Assembly (NCBI GenBank): GCA_015163855.1
Contig: JAAOIK010000035.1
Location: 895-64,894 of the forward strand
DNA from: Pseudobdellovibrionaceae bacterium
GTDB lineage: Bacteria; Bdellovibrionota; Bdellovibrionia; Bdellovibrionales; UBA1609
Reading direction: 5' to 3'
Length of the DNA stretch: 64,000 nt
In this document: piece after piece, positions 1-8,502 of the stretch
How positions within the stretch are numbered: position 1 is the stretch's first letter
Layout: each line of letters starts with the position of its first letter
The notes under the pieces: model-generated
Database searches by the model: none
What the model saw: the letters and a program-made list of their open reading frames with translations, nothing else
What the model was told of the DNA's origin: nothing
Position numbers and translations under genes: made by a program

Positions 1-2
1 TT

Positions 3-2543
3 GCCCAAGGGGATAAAATTTTTATTTCTGATCAATTTCAAAAAAACAAAACATTTAGTAATTTTTTATTAAAGAGCCAAAAAAGCACAGCAGAAGAATT
101 ATCAAAAGCAATATCAACTTTGCCAGCTAAGTACATTGTGTTAAAAGGCGAAAACTTAGAAAGTAAGTTGTACTCTTTATTAGCAGCCAGTGCGTATTTA
201 GAAAAAAACAGTGCACAAAGATACCATGTTGTAAGTCTTCCTTCTTCGTTAATAACTAACGGTATGGATATTGCTAAAATAGAGGCCGTGATTTTTTCTT
301 TAGAAAGTTATTTAAAAGAAAAAATGGTAGTGCATCTTGATACCTTAGGGGGCATTGAAGCAGGAAAGCCACTTCCTCCATCGTTATTATTTTTAGATGC
401 TCTTGAAAAAACACAAAAAGATTTTAGAGTTCCTTTTGTTTTAAATTTTACACAAAACGAAGTAAATGTTTTTTCACAGACAACATTATATAAAGTTGCA
501 AAAGACAAGATAAAAGAAATAGAGACAAAATCACTAAGTGTCGAACAATTAAATGATTTAGCTAAGGTGCTTTTGCCAGAAATACAAAAAAAATACTCGA
601 CTGTAATTAGCGAAAGAGTTATTACCAGCTTATTAAAAGTTGCGCCAATACTGTTTCCTGGCGAAAATATAGTATCGTCGCTTAACCAATTGGTAAAAGA
701 AGTGGTAGAGTCGTTTACCTCTAACAAAGAAATAGAATTAGAGCAGGTAAAAGAACTTGTAGAAAAAAAATATGGTAAAACCAATTTATTTAAAACGGGT
801 TTAGCAGGAGTAGATTTATCTAACAAACAAGAAGTGCTAAAAGTGGTTTTGCAAGTGCAAGATAAAGTTACCAAAGAGTTAATTGGTCAAAACGATGCGG
901 TTACTAAAGTGTCGCAAGCCATAGAAGCGCATTATATGAAAAAAGAAAGAAAAACCCCTTTATCTATTTTTGCAGTGGGTTTAACAGGGGTTGGTAAAAC
1001 CGAATTGGGAAATTTAATTTCTAAACACTTATATGGTTCAAATAGCCTTGCTAACTTTTCTTTAGGTAACTTTTCTCATGTGGGAGATTTAAATAACTTA
1101 TTTGGTTCGGCTAAAGGTTATATTGGTTCTGATGAGATTAGTGAGTTTGAAAAGTTTTTATCAAAAAATCCATCTGGAGGAGTAATTATTTTTGACGAAG
1201 CCTCTAACATGGGTGGAGACAAGCAAGAATCCAAAAACGCTATGTTTAAACGGTTTTATGAGCTTTTAGAAGAAGGTAAGTGGACAGCCTCAAAAAGTGG
1301 AGTCACCTACAACCTAGGTAATTATGTTTTTCTATTTACAGGAAATGATGGCGAAAAAATATTTAAAGGGGTTAATAACGAATCTTACAAAGAACTGCTA
1401 TGGAAGGAAAACAACTCTAGAGAGAAAATTTTTAAAATGTTAACCGAAGTAGGTGTTCCAGAAGCTTTTTTAGGTCGATTAAATGAAGTATTTTTATTTA
1501 AGCCAGTAACTAAAGAAACCGCTATTCAAATTGCTAAAAAATTTATTAAAGATTTTGAAAAAAACTACGAAATTTCTATTAAGTACATTGATAAGGAAAA
1601 GTTTTTTAATAATTTAGTACAAGCTACCTTTTTTGCTTCAGAGGGGGCAAGAAGTGTAAGAAACTTTATCGAAAACCGATTGGGTTCGTACATTGTACGC
1701 GCATCAGAAGAGGCTTTAAGAAGCGGCGAAGCCTTAAAAAGCATAAAGTTAGCTTGGCAAGATAATTTAAACGCTAGAGTTTACGCGGCAAGATCTTTTA
1801 AAAGACAATCGTTTTTAAAGATAAGTATTAGTACAGACAAACACCCTAAATATAGTGCTTTTAAGTCTATAGATGTATCTTCCGATATCATACAAGTAGA
1901 CTTACCAACACGGGCACAGGTTAAAGAAACCGCTTATCACGAAGCGGGGCATGGCTTTTTGTCTTTTGCTAAGCAAACGGGTCAAAAGTTACAATTTATT
2001 TCTGTAATTCCAGGAAGAACATCTGCGGGAATAAATTATTTAGGTGTTGCAGCTTATGATAAAGATATTTTTACAAGTCTTACTTATAAAAACTTAATTA
2101 AAAGAGTGGCTGGATTATTAGCAGGAGGAATGGCTGAAAAAATGGCAGGTTACAATTTATCTTCTGGTTGGAGTAATGACCTTTTACAGGTTAGAACTAT
2201 AATTCAACATGCTTTTTTAAAGGGGACAGTTCTTGAAGGAAAAGGTTTTGAATTTATTAGAATTCAAGGAAAAGAAAATAATGTTAAACTAAGCAAAGAG
2301 CAAGAGAAGCGTTTTCAAGAAGAAGTAGAAAAAGTGATTATTTTAGCTAAAAAAGAAGTGGTTAAAACTTTAACCAAAAAATGGAGCAATGTAGAAAAAG
2401 TAGTAGACCTTTTAATGAAAAAAGGAACTATTAACGCTAAAGAGTTTAGCACTATTGAAAATGATAAAAGCATTAGAGAGGCTTGGGAAGTAGACAGCAA
2501 TTTAAAAGTTTATCAAGCAGCTAGTTGTAAAAGCTTATTTTAG
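3..2543 (+). CDS. AAA+ ATPase (ClpA/ClpB D2-like) fused to an FtsH-type M41 zinc peptidase domain; probably 5'-truncated by the window edge
   Basis: The frame is open from nt 3 with no in-frame stop before the tracked TTG at 120, so the true start probably lies upstream of the window. The middle region looks like Clp/Hsp100 D2: LIGQNDAV, Walker A GLTGVGKTE (978-1001), GYIGSDE, Walker B VIIFDEASNM. The C-terminal region looks like M41: AYHEAGHGF (HEAGH at 1938-1952), GGMAEKM, SGWSNDL. No TM helix seen. Ends in AASCKSLF. Confidence 0.6.
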   Translation, partial: AQGDKIFISDQFQKNKTFSNFLLKSQKSTAEELSKAISTLPAKYIVLKGENLESKLYSLLAASAYLEKNSAQRYHVVSLPSSLITNGMDIAKIEAVIFSLESYLKEKMVVHLDTLGGIEAGKPLPPSLLFLDALEKTQKDFRVPFVLNFTQNEVNVFSQTTLYKVAKDKIKEIETKSLSVEQLNDLAKVLLPEIQKKYSTVISERVITSLLKVAPILFPGENIVSSLNQLVKEVVESFTSNKEIELEQVKELVEKKYGKTNLFKTGLAGVDLSNKQEVLKVVLQVQDKVTKELIGQNDAVTKVSQAIEAHYMKKERKTPLSIFAVGLTGVGKTELGNLISKHLYGSNSLANFSLGNFSHVGDLNNLFGSAKGYIGSDEISEFEKFLSKNPSGGVIIFDEASNMGGDKQESKNAMFKRFYELLEEGKWTASKSGVTYNLGNYVFLFTGNDGEKIFKGVNNESYKELLWKENNSREKIFKMLTEVGVPEAFLGRLNEVFLFKPVTKETAIQIAKKFIKDFEKNYEISIKYIDKEKFFNNLVQATFFASEGARSVRNFIENRLGSYIVRASEEALRSGEALKSIKLAWQDNLNARVYAARSFKRQSFLKISISTDKHPKYSAFKSIDVSSDIIQVDLPTRAQVKETAYHEAGHGFLSFAKQTGQKLQFISVIPGRTSAGINYLGVAAYDKDIFTSLTYKNLIKRVAGLLAGGMAEKMAGYNLSSGWSNDLLQVRTIIQHAFLKGTVLEGKGFEFIRIQGKENNVKLSKEQEKRFQEEVEKVIILAKKEVVKTLTKKWSNVEKVVDLLMKKGTINAKEFSTIENDKSIREAWEVDSNLKVYQAASCKSLF

Positions 2544-2558
2544 GCGGAGAGCATTTTA

Positions 2559-5500
2559 ATGAAGCATTTGTTAAAACAAAGTACTTATTTTATTTTAATT
2601 GTACAGCTACTACTTTCACCAGTAGTAGCTGTAGCAGAATCTGACAGTGTTAGTCGCTTTTATGATAGCAAAACAGACAGCCACCTGCAAAATCAAGACG
2701 CTGTTAATAAGTCAAAACCCCTAACAGAAACAGGAGACTTATTTTTACCAGAATTAAAAGAAACCGACATACGCTTGTTAACCACTTTAGCTTCGGGAGA
2801 TTTTTTAGGTTTAAAAAATCAAACTTTTAAAACTACAGAAGAAAGTTTTTTTAGATCCGACCCCGAATTTGGAAAAAACTTACTGGTAATGCCTCCCTCC
2901 CAAGAACAATTTTTAAAAAACACAAAAATTTACATTCAAGATGGTGTTGTTCATATTAAAGAGCAATTAGACAGTAAAAAACAAGCTTTTGGAAGAGAGC
3001 ATTCTTTTTTTGGGTGGCACTTTAAAGGCGTTCATGTAGCAGGAGATTATTTATTTTTAGAAGTAGACAAAACACAGTCTAAAAACTTACCAGGAGAATT
3101 ATTTAATAATTTTGAATTAAATAAAAACAGCAACAATAGTGTTTTTTTAATTAGGTTAACCGACTTACTAGAACATATGGGTACAAAACGAATTATTATG
3201 TCGGTAATGCCTTTGCCCATGCCTTTGCAAAAAATTACAAATGTAAAGTATCAGGCTTACGACCCTGTGTCTGATAAAAATGCTCCCTATCAAGACAAAG
3301 CTTTAACGGGCTTGTTATCTAGAGATTTTAAAACTTCGGGTTATAAATTTACCGATGCCACAGGAGGGTCGGTAGTAGTGCCAAGCCATGTTCCCGACAT
3401 TTACAGTGATATGTCGCGGTTATTTGTAAAGGCTTTATCTGCAAGTATTGCCCCTTTGCAGCCGTTAAACTCGGAAGGCTTAACTCCTGTTCAAAAAAAT
3501 TACCTTAAAGCTTTAACTAGCTTTGCAAAAAAGCAAAACACTAAACACAATCAAGTTTTTGACACTATCCTTACAGGAATATTAAAAAAACTAAACCCTT
3601 CGCATTTAACAGAGGTTCCCTTTTCTAGTGTTCTTGATTTTGTTCGAGCCAGTTATGCAGACACTATAACCACTCCTAAAAAGGGGTCTTGGGTGGGGCA
3701 AGCGTATTCGCAATTAAAAATTAATCCAAAAGATTTAACTCAAGCCCAAGTTGATTTTGAACAACAGGCTAAAGAGCAAGTAAAAGATTACTTACAAGCA
3801 CAAAAAAACACGGGCGGCAAAGAGTTAAAACAAGCAGGGCGAATGATGCGAACATTAAAAAACCCTCACCCCAACAGTCGTGATATTACATTGGCTTTAC
3901 AGGCAAAAGAGCAAATAAAAAAAGCCAGATACTTTTCTAAAGAAAAATTAACACAATTTATGAAGGGCCCTTTGGGAAATGTTGTAGGGGTTATGGGCAT
4001 AACGGCTTTAACTTTGTCATTATACCATTACACAGGTTTTGGAGGTTGGGCCGACGGTGTAGGAGAAGGTTTTAAGGCACAGTTTAGCTCTGGTACCGAG
4101 GCAATAAAAGCTTTAAAAGTTAATGCAGTGGTGGTGATTGGTTACTTGGGTGGCTTAGGAGCTTTGTTATATTTAGGAACAAAATTAAAAAACAAATTAC
4201 ACAAAACTAAGCAGTCTTTAGTAGTTAGTTTGGCAAATATTGCTAAATATAAATCGTTATTTTTTAGGCATTTGTTTTCGGTTAGAGGAATGGTAAATGC
4301 TATTTTTCCTAATTACTCGCAAAGTGTTTACCGCTATGTAGTCCCTCAAAAAAAATTAGGGGCTTATGATGTGCGGTTTTCTAAATCTTTAAAGCAAGTG
4401 GGAAAGTTTTTAAATTTTAAAAGCTTTTTTGTTAAATTATTAAGGTTTAATAATGTAAAGGATAGCGGCGAGTCGGTTGTTTTTAAAACGCTTTCTAAGC
4501 AAGATAAAGATAGTAGCAAAAAAATAGCTCTTAACAAAGAGGCCTTGGTTAACAAACGCTCCGAGGAGTTAATTTTATTTGAAATGCTACCTCACTTAGC
4601 CAAAACATTAAAAGTTAGCGAATTAGATTTATTAAGTGCCATGGCCCTTAAAAATGTATCTTTGGGTTCTTCCGAATTTTTAGATTGGGATTTTAAAACC
4701 TTATCTAATTGGGCTAAAAATAGTGAAGATCAAAAAATTAAAAAGGCGTTAATTCAATTTAAAAGTAAAAAGCACAAAATAGAAACTCAGTACAGTGGTT
4801 TACTTTCTAAATATTTTTTATATAAAAATGAAAAGCGAATAATGAAAAAAATTAAAAAGACAAAAGATTTTCAAGGCCAAAGGGCTTTTTTAAAATCTTT
4901 ATACTACTTGTCTCTTAAAGACTTAAGGCTTCAGGGGTTTGAAGACCCAAAACGCTTAACTATAGAGCAGGCAAAAAGTATTTTTTCTGATAATTTAGAA
5001 AAGCTAAAAGCCTTTGTAAGCCAAGAAAGCAATTTTGATAAAGTGGCTATGGAGCAAAACATTATAAAAGCCACGCGCAGCTTTCAATCGGTTTACCAAT
5101 TGTTGCATAAAGAAAAAACCAGTGGATTAAAGCAAAGGCAGTTTGTTGCAATGGCTAAAATAAACACCGATCATGTTACCCATACATTAAGGGCTACTTC
5201 TTTAGATTATGGTATGGAAAGGGTTCAATCTTATGCAGAATTTTTTAAAACTTTACAAGCTAGGGGCATTAGTTTTTATGACCCCACTAGCTGGTTTACC
5301 GAAAACCACACCATGGGGCTTTATAATCAAGATGCTCGTCATGCTTTGTGGAACCCTGTTGCTCATATTATTTCAGGGCCTTTAGGTACGGCAAATATTA
5401 TTAGTCGATCGGGCCCCGATGCAGTGGATTATGGTGTAGAAAACACCTCTTTTTTTTACCGAAATATAAGACAGTTTGTAAACCCGCAAAGGTACAGACA

Positions 5501-6188
5501 AATGGGGATTTTTAATAAATCGATGTGGTACGAGTATAAAAGAAATTTTTTAAGAGGACTAATCCCTGCATTTAGTTTTTCTGTGGTTTTACAAATGACT
5601 TTTTACCACGAATTTCGCCCCGATATTTTTGTGGGCTATATGTTTTTGTATGGACCCATTGGTTTTGTTTGGCATTATATTCAAAGTAAGTTGTTAATGA
5701 CTACGCAAGCCATTAAGTACGAAAGCATAAAGCCAAAATTATTAAAAAATTTAGAACAAGAACAAAAAATGGCAAATACCGTTACAAAAAAGTGGGCTTT
5801 GGCCATGAAAAAGTATGCCATAAAAGTAAACCCACAATGGTTTTATATTGTGCCTGATTTAATTTTATTTAATGCCTTAACTTTTTTTATGGAGCGATGG
5901 AGTTACGATAAAGGGCCTGTGCAAATGTTAAGTTCGTGGTTGGGAAAAACATTTAATCAGCCCAATTGGGAATTTAGCTTGTACGAATTACAATCTAAGT
6001 TTGTTACCCCTTACTTACCTAAGTGGGCAATGGGTATTGCAGCTAGTTACTTAGCTTACCAGCTATATATAAAGTTAAGAGATAAAAAAGCAGGAAAAAA
6101 CTTAGTAAATAAGATAGTAAAAACCAGCAAAAAAAGCATAAAAGTAAACTCCGTTTTTGCAGGTAGTTGTAAATCGTTATTTCGTTAA
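2559..6188 (+). CDS. Large (1209 aa) signal-peptide-bearing polytopic membrane protein of unknown function
   Basis: N-terminal signal-like segment ILIVQLLLSPVVAVAESD. Hydrophobic helices around residues 470-545 and in the last ~250 aa. Lies 15 nt after the upstream stop, with GGAGAG ahead of the ATG. Ends in AGSCKSLFR. I recognise no family motif. Confidence 0.55.
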   Translation: MKHLLKQSTYFILIVQLLLSPVVAVAESDSVSRFYDSKTDSHLQNQDAVNKSKPLTETGDLFLPELKETDIRLLTTLASGDFLGLKNQTFKTTEESFFRSDPEFGKNLLVMPPSQEQFLKNTKIYIQDGVVHIKEQLDSKKQAFGREHSFFGWHFKGVHVAGDYLFLEVDKTQSKNLPGELFNNFELNKNSNNSVFLIRLTDLLEHMGTKRIIMSVMPLPMPLQKITNVKYQAYDPVSDKNAPYQDKALTGLLSRDFKTSGYKFTDATGGSVVVPSHVPDIYSDMSRLFVKALSASIAPLQPLNSEGLTPVQKNYLKALTSFAKKQNTKHNQVFDTILTGILKKLNPSHLTEVPFSSVLDFVRASYADTITTPKKGSWVGQAYSQLKINPKDLTQAQVDFEQQAKEQVKDYLQAQKNTGGKELKQAGRMMRTLKNPHPNSRDITLALQAKEQIKKARYFSKEKLTQFMKGPLGNVVGVMGITALTLSLYHYTGFGGWADGVGEGFKAQFSSGTEAIKALKVNAVVVIGYLGGLGALLYLGTKLKNKLHKTKQSLVVSLANIAKYKSLFFRHLFSVRGMVNAIFPNYSQSVYRYVVPQKKLGAYDVRFSKSLKQVGKFLNFKSFFVKLLRFNNVKDSGESVVFKTLSKQDKDSSKKIALNKEALVNKRSEELILFEMLPHLAKTLKVSELDLLSAMALKNVSLGSSEFLDWDFKTLSNWAKNSEDQKIKKALIQFKSKKHKIETQYSGLLSKYFLYKNEKRIMKKIKKTKDFQGQRAFLKSLYYLSLKDLRLQGFEDPKRLTIEQAKSIFSDNLEKLKAFVSQESNFDKVAMEQNIIKATRSFQSVYQLLHKEKTSGLKQRQFVAMAKINTDHVTHTLRATSLDYGMERVQSYAEFFKTLQARGISFYDPTSWFTENHTMGLYNQDARHALWNPVAHIISGPLGTANIISRSGPDAVDYGVENTSFFYRNIRQFVNPQRYRQMGIFNKSMWYEYKRNFLRGLIPAFSFSVVLQMTFYHEFRPDIFVGYMFLYGPIGFVWHYIQSKLLMTTQAIKYESIKPKLLKNLEQEQKMANTVTKKWALAMKKYAIKVNPQWFYIVPDLILFNALTFFMERWSYDKGPVQMLSSWLGKTFNQPNWEFSLYELQSKFVTPYLPKWAMGIAASYLAYQLYIKLRDKKAGKNLVNKIVKTSKKSIKVNSVFAGSCKSLFR

Positions 6189-6296
6189 TCAAGCCTTGTG
6201 GATAATAAAACTTTTCGGCTATAAAACTTTGCAAGCAATCAAGCCTTGCAGGATAATAAAACCTGCAAGCAATCAAGCCTTGCGGATAATAAAACC
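6187..6296. repeat. Three direct copies of a ~26-bp element, AATCAAGCCTTG(n)GGATAATAAAAC(C)
   Basis: Copies start at 6187, 6237 and 6271. Copy 1 contains TGTGGATAA, the reverse complement of the DnaA-box consensus TTATCCACA. Copy 3 has TGCGGATAA (1 mismatch). TGCAAG..CTTGCA short stems lie between copies. The array sits between the stop at 6188 and a TATAAT at 6309-6314, upstream of the 6334 gene. Confidence 0.7.
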
Positions 6297-6333
6297 TCTA
6301 GACTTAGCTATAATATACTAATACTCTTAACCT

Positions 6334-7428: not shown

Positions 7429-8502
7429 ATGTTTAAGTTTTTGTCTGCATTTGTACCGGATTGGCCTTTTTTAAATGTTTTTCACTATATTACGGTGCGC
7501 AGTTTTTTATCGTTTTTTACTACTTTTTTTATAGTGCTTTATTTGGGGCCGGTGGTTATTAAACTTTTAAGACAATTTAAAATGAAGCAAAGTATCCGAA
7601 CCGACGGGCCCGAAACGCATTTAAAAAAAGAGGGCACTCCCACTATGGGAGGGTGGATAATTATATTAGGAACAGCCATTTCGTCTTTTTTTTGGTTAGA
7701 TTTTTCTAACCCCTTGGTGCAATTTTTATTATTTATTTTAGCCAGCTTTGCCTGCGTGGGAGGGGCCGATGATTACTTAAAGGTTCGCTCTAGTAGTGCT
7801 AAAGGTTTATCTGGTAAATTGCGATTATGCTTAGAGTTTTTACTATCTGCGGGCTTTTTGCTGTATTTAATTACACAGGGTTATGTAAGCACAGAAGTGT
7901 ATTTTCCGTTTTTTAAAAATGCCGTAGTCGACCTATCTTGGTTTTATGCTTTGTTTGGTGGCTTGGTTATTGTGTCTTCTGCCAATGCGGTAAATTTAAC
8001 CGACGGTTTAGATGGGTTGGCCATTGTGCCTTTAATTATTGCCATTAGCACTTTAATGATTTTTAGTTATGTGGCAGGGCATAGTGTTATAGCCGAATAT
8101 TTAAATATTCCCTTTATTGCTAAATCCAGCGAATTAAGTGTTTTAGGTTCTAGCGTGATTGCCGCCAGTTTGGGTTTTTTATGGTTTAATGCTTATCCGG
8201 CTCAAGTATTTATGGGAGATGTAGGTAGTTTAAGCTTAGGTGGCTTTTTAGGAGCCTTAGCCGTAGTTACCAAAAATGAGTTAATTTTAATTGTGATTGC
8301 AGGAGTTTTTGTAGTCGAAGCCTTGTCGGTAATGATACAGGTGTTTTTTTATAAATTAAAAGGCAAGCGAGTCTTTAAAATGGCCCCCTTACATCATCAC
8401 TTTGAGCTAAGCGGTATTGCAGAAAATAAAGTCATTATTCGCTTTTGGATTGTTTCTATTTTATTAGCGGTATTAAGTTTACTGAGTTTAAAGTTGCGTT
8501 AA
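7429..8502 (+). CDS. mraY: Phospho-N-acetylmuramoyl-pentapeptide transferase
   Basis: KEGTPTMGG, NAVNLTDGLDGLA, FMGDVGSLSLGG, MAPLHHHFE. About 10 TM segments. dcw synteny. Confidence 0.95.
   Translation: MFKFLSAFVPDWPFLNVFHYITVRSFLSFFTTFFIVLYLGPVVIKLLRQFKMKQSIRTDGPETHLKKEGTPTMGGWIIILGTAISSFFWLDFSNPLVQFLLFILASFACVGGADDYLKVRSSSAKGLSGKLRLCLEFLLSAGFLLYLITQGYVSTEVYFPFFKNAVVDLSWFYALFGGLVIVSSANAVNLTDGLDGLAIVPLIIAISTLMIFSYVAGHSVIAEYLNIPFIAKSSELSVLGSSVIAASLGFLWFNAYPAQVFMGDVGSLSLGGFLGALAVVTKNELILIVIAGVFVVEALSVMIQVFFYKLKGKRVFKMAPLHHHFELSGIAENKVIIRFWIVSILLAVLSLLSLKLR

Follow-up and report, generated by a model that had tools for sequence, protein, structure and literature searches.

Short terminal tags on otherwise unrelated proteins have repeatedly exposed the machinery that handles them, as with sortases, exosortases, rhombosortases, type IX secretion and the loading of encapsulins. 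In the LPXTG/sortase, PEP-CTERM/exosortase, GlyGly-CTERM/rhombosortase and MYXO-CTERM systems, a short signature is carried by many unrelated signal-peptide proteins of one genome, and the MYXO-CTERM signature is also centred on a cysteine. The cargo peptides of encapsulins and microcompartments are likewise short, occur at either terminus of co-encoded unrelated enzymes and co-evolve with one partner. In Plasmodium, the translocon of exported proteins (PTEX) contains HSP101, a signal-peptide-bearing ClpB-like unfoldase that exports proteins tagged with the Plasmodium export element (PEXEL) into the host cell. Here, a cysteine-based terminal tag is described from a stretch of 64,000 nucleotides (below, the window) of a Pseudobdellovibrionaceae bacterium (assembly GCA_015163855.1, contig JAAOIK010000035.1, positions 895 to 64,894 of the forward strand). 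Two adjacent genes at the left edge of the window encode a protein that joins a ClpB-type AAA+ module to an FtsH-type M41 protease (the AAA-M41 protein) and a 1209-aa protein, and the two products end in almost the same peptide. Judging by sequence comparison, this pair of tails is one instance of a lineage-wide portable terminal tag, and the tag is, on the same grounds, restricted to the AAA-M41 family and its neighbours.

The two genes and their parts have the following positions in the window.

1..2543, plus strand: 3' part of the AAA-M41 gene (residues 107-952 of 952); frame open back to base 3; 100% identity with the database protein P0002
840..1691, plus strand: ClpB-D2-like AAA+ module, from Pfam and PDB sequence matches; Walker A GLTGVGKT at 978-1001, Walker B IIFDEASN, pore loop GYIG
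1914..2459, plus strand: Peptidase M41 (FtsH-type) domain (PF01434, E=1e-17); zinc motif HEAGH at 1938-1952
2481..2540, plus strand: disordered C-terminal tail of the AAA-M41 protein; tag AASCKSLF at 2517-2540, Cys codon at 2526-2528, stop codon at 2541-2543
2544..2558, plus strand: intergenic spacer of 15 nt; GGAG at 2546-2549, nine bases before the ATG
2559..6188, plus strand: gene for the 1209-aa protein; tag AGSCKSLFR at 6159-6185, Cys codon at 6168-6170
2559-2636, plus strand: signal-peptide-like N-terminus of the 1209-aa protein, ending VVAVA/ESD (here and below, the slash marks the likely cleavage site)

The AAA-M41 open reading frame (ORF), with its stop at 2543, has the C-terminus LKVYQAASCKSLF, which ends VYQAASCKSLF, and the ORF at 2559-6188 has the C-terminus VNSVFAGSCKSLFR, which ends VFAGSCKSLFR. 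The N-terminal 106 codons of the AAA-M41 gene lie to the left of the window edge; the 807-aa protein listed in a previous sequence-only reading of this DNA is an artefact of that edge, and the full-length protein (P0002) has 952 aa. No terminator-like site was found between the two genes, which are probably co-transcribed, and a promoter and terminator scan around both of them gave sites no more numerous than in shuffled sequence.

The sequence-only reading described the extreme C-termini as identical. This is correct for the common block SCKSLF (6 aa), and 7 of 8 residues are identical over A[A/G]SCKSLF, but the second tail carries an extra terminal arginine. Beyond the tail, BLASTP finds no similarity between the two proteins, in agreement with the view that they are otherwise unrelated, and no other ORF among the 65 of the window carries the tag at either terminus, as had also been stated for the C-terminal ends. 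The separate AAA+ protease that was supposed to lie next to the pair does not exist as such, the protease being the first tail carrier itself. A common terminal 6-mer (offset <=1) is expected 4.5e-4 times among the 65 window ORFs and 1.4e-5 times for adjacent genes, and was seen in 8 of 20000 simulations. At the DNA level, the last 24 nt of the two tails are identical at 20 positions, the preceding 36 nt at 14. The serine codon of the tag is AGC in one window gene and TCG in the other, and the same split between AGY and TCN codons (AGC versus TCT) recurs in the locus of a 64%-identical relative (L001). Since the serine codon families differ in both species, the peptide has been conserved as such and not recently copied. 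The sequence-only reading had drawn the same conclusion from the window alone, and it is borne out by orthologues of both proteins: the tail is kept in the AAA-M41 orthologue P0003, in the L001 remnant of the 1209-aa protein, in its relative P0122 and in every AAA-M41 homologue examined. A chance match, or a recent functionless local duplication of a few codons, might be proposed in view of the shortness of the common block (only 6-8 residues). The expectations given above (~4e-4 per window, ~1e-5 for adjacent genes), the codon split in both species, and the presence of the tag in 43 of 43 AAA-M41 homologues and in orthologues of the 1209-aa protein leave this explanation practically no probability; the conservation data refute it.

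As for the AAA-M41 protein, it starts with a signal-peptide-like segment (MKFLLLNVFFIFSVIFSSTSYA/G), which is followed by a degenerate D1-like region, a ClpB-D2-type AAA+ module and an FtsH-type M41 protease. The Pfam matches are AAA_2 and Peptidase_M41, the latter above the gathering score, and phmmer against PDB sequences gives the D2 module of ClpB (E=7e-21) and the FtsH protease (E=3e-9; structures 2ce7 and 3kds). The zinc motif HEAGH occupies residues 752-756. The HExxH pattern is present in nearly all AAA-M41 homologues, and an alignment of 21 sequences shows no variation at the Walker A, Walker B and arginine positions. With the M41 fold and HExxH, the protein belongs to Peptidase M41. 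A fold search with its AlphaFold2 model aligned 550-650 columns to the two-ring proteins ClpC, ClpB and ClpA, and on this basis the N-terminal half looks like a degenerate D1 ring. In the same model, the AAA and M41 domains have a predicted local distance difference test score (pLDDT) of 85-95, whereas residues 933-952 have a pLDDT of 36-44 and are devoid of secondary structure; the tag is therefore predicted to be a short linear motif on a flexible, disordered tail.

Known families that combine some of these features do not accommodate the protein. FtsH proper was rejected because the TIGR01241 score (56 bits, with the cut-off at 600) comes from the protease part only, the AAA module is AAA_2/ClpB-D2-like and not of the FtsH type (PF00004 clade), and the N-terminus has one hydrophobic segment where FtsH has two transmembrane helices. 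The ClpB/Hsp104 disaggregases were rejected because only D2 matches (TIGR03346, 80 bits against a cut-off of 1232), no Clp_N match is found, and an M41 domain is fused at the C-terminus. PADLOC returned generic ClpB-like AAA matches and no defence system, so that a known defence system was also discarded. Most AAA-M41 homologues (P0004-P0021, L004-L043) are 1250-1570 aa long, and their three Walker A motifs suggest that M41 is preceded by three AAA+ modules; the window protein has one Walker A motif and the degenerate D1-like region. Its only other cysteine is C89 (KEACKLIGVPF; window 266-283, residues 86-100), which is part of a helix predicted in the N-terminal region and is kept in P0003 (REACRFESVPF); several homologues have no second cysteine. 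C89 could be an intramolecular partner of the tail cysteine in P0002 and P0003.

The tail proved to be conserved over the entire AAA-M41 family. P0003 (64% identity) ends TSCKSLF, and twenty further homologues from Bdellovibrionota metagenome-assembled genomes (MAGs), with ~23-28% identity over the full alignment and a length of 1170-1480 aa, all have a cysteine near the end (for example, CESLF, CKNLFGK, CESVFTEVIQ and CDTLFL). The tail cysteine is an invariant column in 21 of 21 aligned homologues (23-61% identity). A locus scan with one genome per species gave 43 loci, almost all from Bdellovibrionota, with four from Alphaproteobacteria (Rhodoblastus acidophilus DSM 137 and Roseiarcus fermentans DSM 24875 among them). 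Wherever the C-terminus of a homologue could be read, in 43 of 43 cases, a cysteine lies 5-22 residues before the end, mostly within the consensus [RKSM]-C-x-x-[LFIV]-[LFY]. As a negative control, 79 ordinary Clp ATPases without M41 were taken from a metagenome-contig scan with a family alignment (one generic pattern, which retrieved no AAA-M41 protein), and the motif was found in the last 25 residues of none of them (0/79). The database fragment P0022 is devoid of the tail and also of a proper N-terminus. Two variants with a dead zinc site, L031 (REAGR) and P0023 (TEAAQ), have lost the histidine ligands, and retain both an intact ATPase and the tail cysteine. In the four alphaproteobacterial loci (L016, L018, L023 and L045, from Rhodoblastus, Roseiarcus and two MAGs), the tail of the AAA-M41 homologue reads VDVCARLLV..., the gene lies between a ~1000-aa partner resembling the neighbour family of L036 and L042 and a gene that by eye is carotenoid-oxygenase-like, and an alpha/beta-hydrolase with a signal peptide is encoded upstream.

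The tag also occurs on unrelated neighbours of the AAA-M41 genes. It consists of a lone cysteine with hydrophobic residues at +3 and +4 (C-x-x-[LFIV]-[LFY]) and is placed either near the C-terminus, at a distance of 5-25 residues, or a few residues past the cleavage site of the signal peptide. Five carriers were found in L004, where the C-terminal tags are CGSLFL, CRGLFQ, CKKLF and CRSLF, and nine in one operon-like array of L026, six with the tag at the C-terminus and three with the tag after the signal peptide. Carriers of C-terminal tags are also present in L007, L009, L025, L040 and L044. Tags after the signal peptide include NTCADLLS in L006, SQCADFFT and LQCQALFK in L007 and SLCRDLFY in L015, with others in L036, L042 and L004; in L017, NRCADLLSG follows the signal peptide of a neighbour, and the adjoining AAA-M41 protein ends NRCADLLSGKL. 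Thus carriers beyond the window, for which the sequence-only reading had proposed a search, do exist and cluster with AAA-M41 loci. The frequency of the tag at a distance of 1, 2, 3, 4, 5 and >5 genes from the AAA-M41 gene is 33%, 18%, 16%, 11%, 5% and 2%, respectively (Fisher p=1.3e-5). Nearly all Bdellovibrionota carriers have signal-peptide-like N-termini with the usual layout of n-, h- and c-regions (e.g., SYA/G, VFA/E, AWA/S and MALA/G).

Cysteine is scarce in the carriers. In the remaining ORFs of these loci, 0.96-1.16% of the residues are cysteine, whereas the share is 0.49% in tagged neighbours and 0.16% in AAA-M41 proteins, and 23 of 44 AAA-M41 proteins have exactly one cysteine after the signal peptide. 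The frequent lack of a second cysteine, the N-terminal tags and the signal peptides of the carriers had escaped the sequence-only reading. Exported proteins of Gram-negative bacteria usually prefer even cysteine counts (PMC7678975). The conservation of a lone terminal cysteine despite this preference suggests that the thiol itself matters. In addition, tags of one locus resemble each other more closely than tags of different loci do (BLOSUM score 4.9 versus 1.8, permutation p=0.004), and this co-variation fits a common partner or the self-pairing of tags.

The domains found in tagged neighbours include an ABC1 kinase, a phosphoribosyl pyrophosphate (PRPP)-synthetase-like domain, LOG/SLOG domains in two proteins, an EEP nuclease/phosphatase, a Macro domain, an alpha/beta-hydrolase and a domain resembling the sulfatase-modifying formylglycine-generating enzyme (FGE-sulfatase), which is C-terminal in three tagged neighbours. 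ATP- or nucleotide-using enzymes that are normally cytoplasmic occur in L026 (24-17790), L004 (171-16959) and L007 (5247-17035) with both a signal-peptide-like N-terminus and the tag; PRPP-synthetase-like, ABC1 kinase, LOG/SLOG, Macro and EEP proteins are among them, and by their sequences they look like a secreted effector arsenal. Profile-profile comparison (hhalign) revealed no homology between the 1209-aa protein, a 1435-aa protein of L001, neighbour clusters 1 and 3 and the giant proteins of L004. The 1435-aa protein, which has a signal peptide and ends LKCSDLFN, is encoded together with a divergent PmbA/TldD pair at 8012-15097 of L001; these three genes, absent from the window, are situated between the tagged genes and APP1-like/mraY genes.

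As for the 1209-aa protein, the cysteine of the tag is its only one, and the probability of there being no other by chance is ~6e-6. According to a Kyte-Doolittle threshold, it has one strong hydrophobic segment (residues 519-537) in addition to the signal peptide. No match was found in Pfam, NCBIfam or PADLOC, and a homologue search in a database of 5.8 billion proteins returned only the protein itself. An exhaustive phmmer search of 1.84 billion cluster representatives found three relatives only, namely P0122 and two fragments in L001. P0122 is 35% identical to the 1209-aa protein and has the C-terminus NRCNLLKNRFRYW (RCNLLK...). The AlphaFold2 model of the 1209-aa protein, calculated from a two-sequence alignment, has a mean pLDDT of 31 and is unusable. 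At 7179-7926 of L001, the orthologue has been cut to an N-terminal ORF of 105 aa and a C-terminal ORF of 129 aa, with ~975 codons gone; the C-terminal fragment is still tagged (VNCKSLFH). An inverted repeat with arms of ~21-22 bp (GGTTCATGACCAGTTAAGTTAAC...TCAACTTAACTGGTCATGAACC) is located at the junction, at about 7490-7545. In the window, an intergenic repeat lies at 6187-6304, directly past the stop of the 1209-aa gene; it comprises two 25-nt copies of AATCAAGCCTTG[T/C]GGATAATAAAAC at a distance of 84 nt, and the sequence between them has a 17-nt periodicity. This 25-nt sequence has no further copy in the window, and 0 are expected by chance. The window also encodes a SecY that is 65-71% identical to SecY of Bdellovibrionales MAGs and contains the dcw and ribosomal-protein operons, so the DNA is chromosomal and belongs to an uncultured member of Bdellovibrionota.

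Comparison with described terminal signals gave no counterpart. A signal for sortase, exosortase or rhombosortase or of the MYXO-CTERM type was rejected because only 4-21 mostly polar residues follow the cysteine, with neither a transmembrane helix nor a basic cluster. NCBIfam searches with the 60-aa tails and with the tagged neighbours (E<=5) detected no sorting-domain model, and no family of cognate sortase-type processing enzymes recurs within +/-10 kb across 45 loci. A CaaX box requires the cysteine exactly fourth from the end, whereas the window tails have it at -5 (CKSLF) and -6 (CKSLFR), homologues have it anywhere from -5 to -22, and it may also be N-terminal. The lipobox [LVI][ASTVI][GAS]C does not fit the residues before the cysteine of N-terminal tags (e.g., GNT, ASQ, SNR and PSL), and this cysteine is several residues past the likely cleavage site. 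HbYX docking was discarded because the penultimate residue of the window proteins is not tyrosine. No encapsulin or bacterial microcompartment shell family was found among the neighbours searched with Pfam, which are a subset of all neighbours. A literature search on Bdellovibrio in connection with C-terminal cysteines, sorting signals, AAA+, FtsH, M41 and effectors gave no description of such a system. In the profile libraries and papers searched, the tag is thus without a counterpart.

The sequence-only reading had left the function of the tail among sorting, lipidation, degradation and docking. Known lipidation signals (CaaX, lipobox) fail their defining tests, and the data favour a tag that is linked to the AAA+ protease and serves sorting, docking or recognition. 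Within this range, the reading preferred here, although tentatively and with somewhat less than an even chance, is that the tag is a thiol-dependent docking or tethering handle that couples exported clients to an AAA-M41 hub. It starts from two tag-marked groups, a conserved, putatively Sec-exported unfoldase-protease and a variable set of unrelated, apparently exported proteins encoded alongside, of which the 1209-aa protein would be the member in the window. The six flexible tails of an AAA-M41 hexamer would carry the motif, and clients would pair with these tails or with each other, like tags coming into contact through the two hydrophobic residues. In the oxidising periplasm, an intermolecular disulfide may lock the tag pairs, and the link would open in a reducing compartment with ATP, for example inside a prey cell, where both the ATP-dependent hub and clients that use ATP or nucleotides could be active. 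Such reversibility would be apt for partners whose need for ATP or nucleotides keeps them from working in the periplasm. That tags physically pair, that a disulfide forms and where the system acts are inferences from these features. Several observations weigh against tethering of this kind. The AlphaFold2 monomer model presents no docking site, and an AAA+ machine would reside in a periplasm without ATP. The signal peptides were called by visual inspection and a crude script rather than by a dedicated predictor. In about half of the loci, the AAA-M41 protein is tagged and no tagged neighbour lies within 10 kb, and P0122 is not beside an AAA-M41 gene on its 5-kb contig. Moreover, the four alphaproteobacterial homologues have the N-terminus MKQ..SGP..SLAFLGL and no convincing signal peptide, and in the reducing cytoplasm a disulfide lock would not form.

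Alternatively, the tag might be read by some component of the envelope, such as a translocon in the outer membrane, a factor that loads vesicles or an enzyme of the sortase kind. This component would direct the carriers, AAA-M41 protein included, to the outside of the cell or into prey, with the cysteine as the point of recognition or attachment. The signal-peptide-like N-termini of the carriers would agree with this sorting signal, as would the affiliation of the window organism with Bdellovibrionota, a client repertoire resembling effectors that need a cytoplasmic target, and a within-locus co-variation of tags that fits a common genome-specific receptor. Nevertheless, the AAA-M41 gene is the only conserved candidate for a receptor or processing gene that recurs across the 45 loci. 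Known secretion signals cannot be swapped between N- and C-termini, the alphaproteobacterial homologues keep the tag seemingly without a signal peptide, and neither an NCBIfam sorting domain nor a transmembrane helix or basic cluster past the motif was detected; sorting is considered rather doubtful. The tag might instead be a degron or engagement handle, with the AAA+ pore seizing the disordered tagged terminus in order to unfold, process or degrade co-encoded proteins, and the tag on the protease itself serving autoregulation by self-degradation or self-processing. AAA+ unfoldases start at disordered termini of either end, and the tag is terminal and predicted to be disordered; conservation extends to the pore loop GYIG and the Walker motifs, and the protease gene is surrounded by tag-bearing genes. 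The tag persists where the zinc site is dead and the ATPase intact, as well as in versions seemingly without a signal peptide, and E. coli FtsH reportedly trims its own C-terminus. A degron would, however, leave the constant cysteine and the purge of other cysteines unexplained, would be odd on every copy of the protease, and would imply the costly synthesis of an operon of large enzymes merely for destruction; it is judged unlikely.

The single invariant cysteine on a flexible tail beside a zinc protease, together with the same motif on neighbours, could also recall the cysteine switch of matrix-metalloprotease propeptides, in which case the thiol would ligate the catalytic zinc of M41 and keep the protease latent, and the neighbours would be inhibitors or active-site-directed substrates. 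This has only a slim chance of being correct, as the tail cysteine is retained in L031 and P0023 without zinc ligands, AlphaFold2 does not put the tail on the M41 domain, and the linker from M41 to the cysteine varies widely in length. Covalent modification of the cysteine, either by S-acylation or another lipid or by conversion to formylglycine through the FGE-like domains of neighbours, might anchor or cross-link the carriers. The cysteine is unique, conserved and adjacent to hydrophobic residues, three tagged neighbours end in an FGE-sulfatase domain, and engineered "aldehyde tags" function at either terminus. At the same time, the geometry is neither that of a lipobox nor that of CaaX, the motif is not CxPxR, the FGE domain occurs in just 3 of ~45 loci, and no acyltransferase recurs, which makes modification very improbable. 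A bolder reading, improbable in our estimation although less so than the two preceding explanations, is that AAA-M41 is a Sec-exported, PTEX-like unfoldase and processing machine of predatory bacteria for which the tag is the export element. Tagged effectors such as the nuclease, Macro, LOG, PRPP-synthetase-like and kinase proteins would then be latched by disulfides to the hexamer in the predator periplasm, carried to the prey, and released or threaded into its reducing, ATP-containing cytoplasm. The membrane conduit might be formed by very large hydrophobic carriers of the tag, the 1209-aa protein among them.

Whatever its function, the tag is unusual in being cysteine-based, in occurring at either terminus without a transmembrane helix or basic cluster, and in being tied to an apparently exported ClpB-FtsH hybrid. 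An exported AAA+ protease raises the question of its ATP source. Some carriers have a signal peptide and yet are enzymes that work on ATP, nucleotides or nucleic acids; in a predatory phylum, this combination points to prey-directed effectors. To our knowledge, the delivery of proteins into prey by Bdellovibrio-like predators is still poorly understood. With the rule of a signal peptide, a lone terminal cysteine and two hydrophobic residues at +3/+4, a set of candidate effectors, and the hub with it, would become directly open to experiment.

Returning to the described systems, the tag differs from the tripartite sorting signals in having no transmembrane helix or basic cluster, in occurring also at the mature N-terminus, and in the absence of a recurring sortase-type gene. 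The cargo peptides of encapsulins and microcompartments are cytoplasmic and not cysteine-based, whereas the present carriers have signal peptides and an AAA+ protease as the constant partner. In a CaaX box, a C-terminal cysteine is likewise followed by aliphatic residues, and through HbYX tails AAA+ ATPases likewise dock by the C-terminus, but the position of the tag cysteine (-5/-6 in the window, -5 to -22 elsewhere, or N-terminal) and the penultimate residue of the window proteins separate the tag from both. FtsH shares with the AAA-M41 protein an HExxH M41 domain C-terminal to an AAA+ module, and the hexamer is assumed here by analogy with it; FtsH has its own AAA type and two transmembrane helices, while the present family has a D2-type module of the ClpB/ClpC kind (AAA_2), mostly three Walker A motifs and a signal-peptide-like start. 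In disulfide-linked AB toxins (diphtheria, cholera, ricin), a single interchain disulfide, reduced once in the target cytosol, holds the catalytic moiety on its carrier; there, the link is within one precursor or between dedicated partners, without a portable tag, and in the present case the disulfide is putative. PTEX is eukaryotic and has no fused protease, and PEXEL (RxLxE/Q/D) is exclusively N-terminal and is cleaved in the endoplasmic reticulum; translocation by AAA-M41 would be pure conjecture. Still, PTEX likewise combines a ClpB-type AAA+ protein bearing a signal peptide with signal-peptide proteins that have a common short motif near the terminus, and both PTEX and the AAA-M41 carriers are found in organisms that live on or in other cells.

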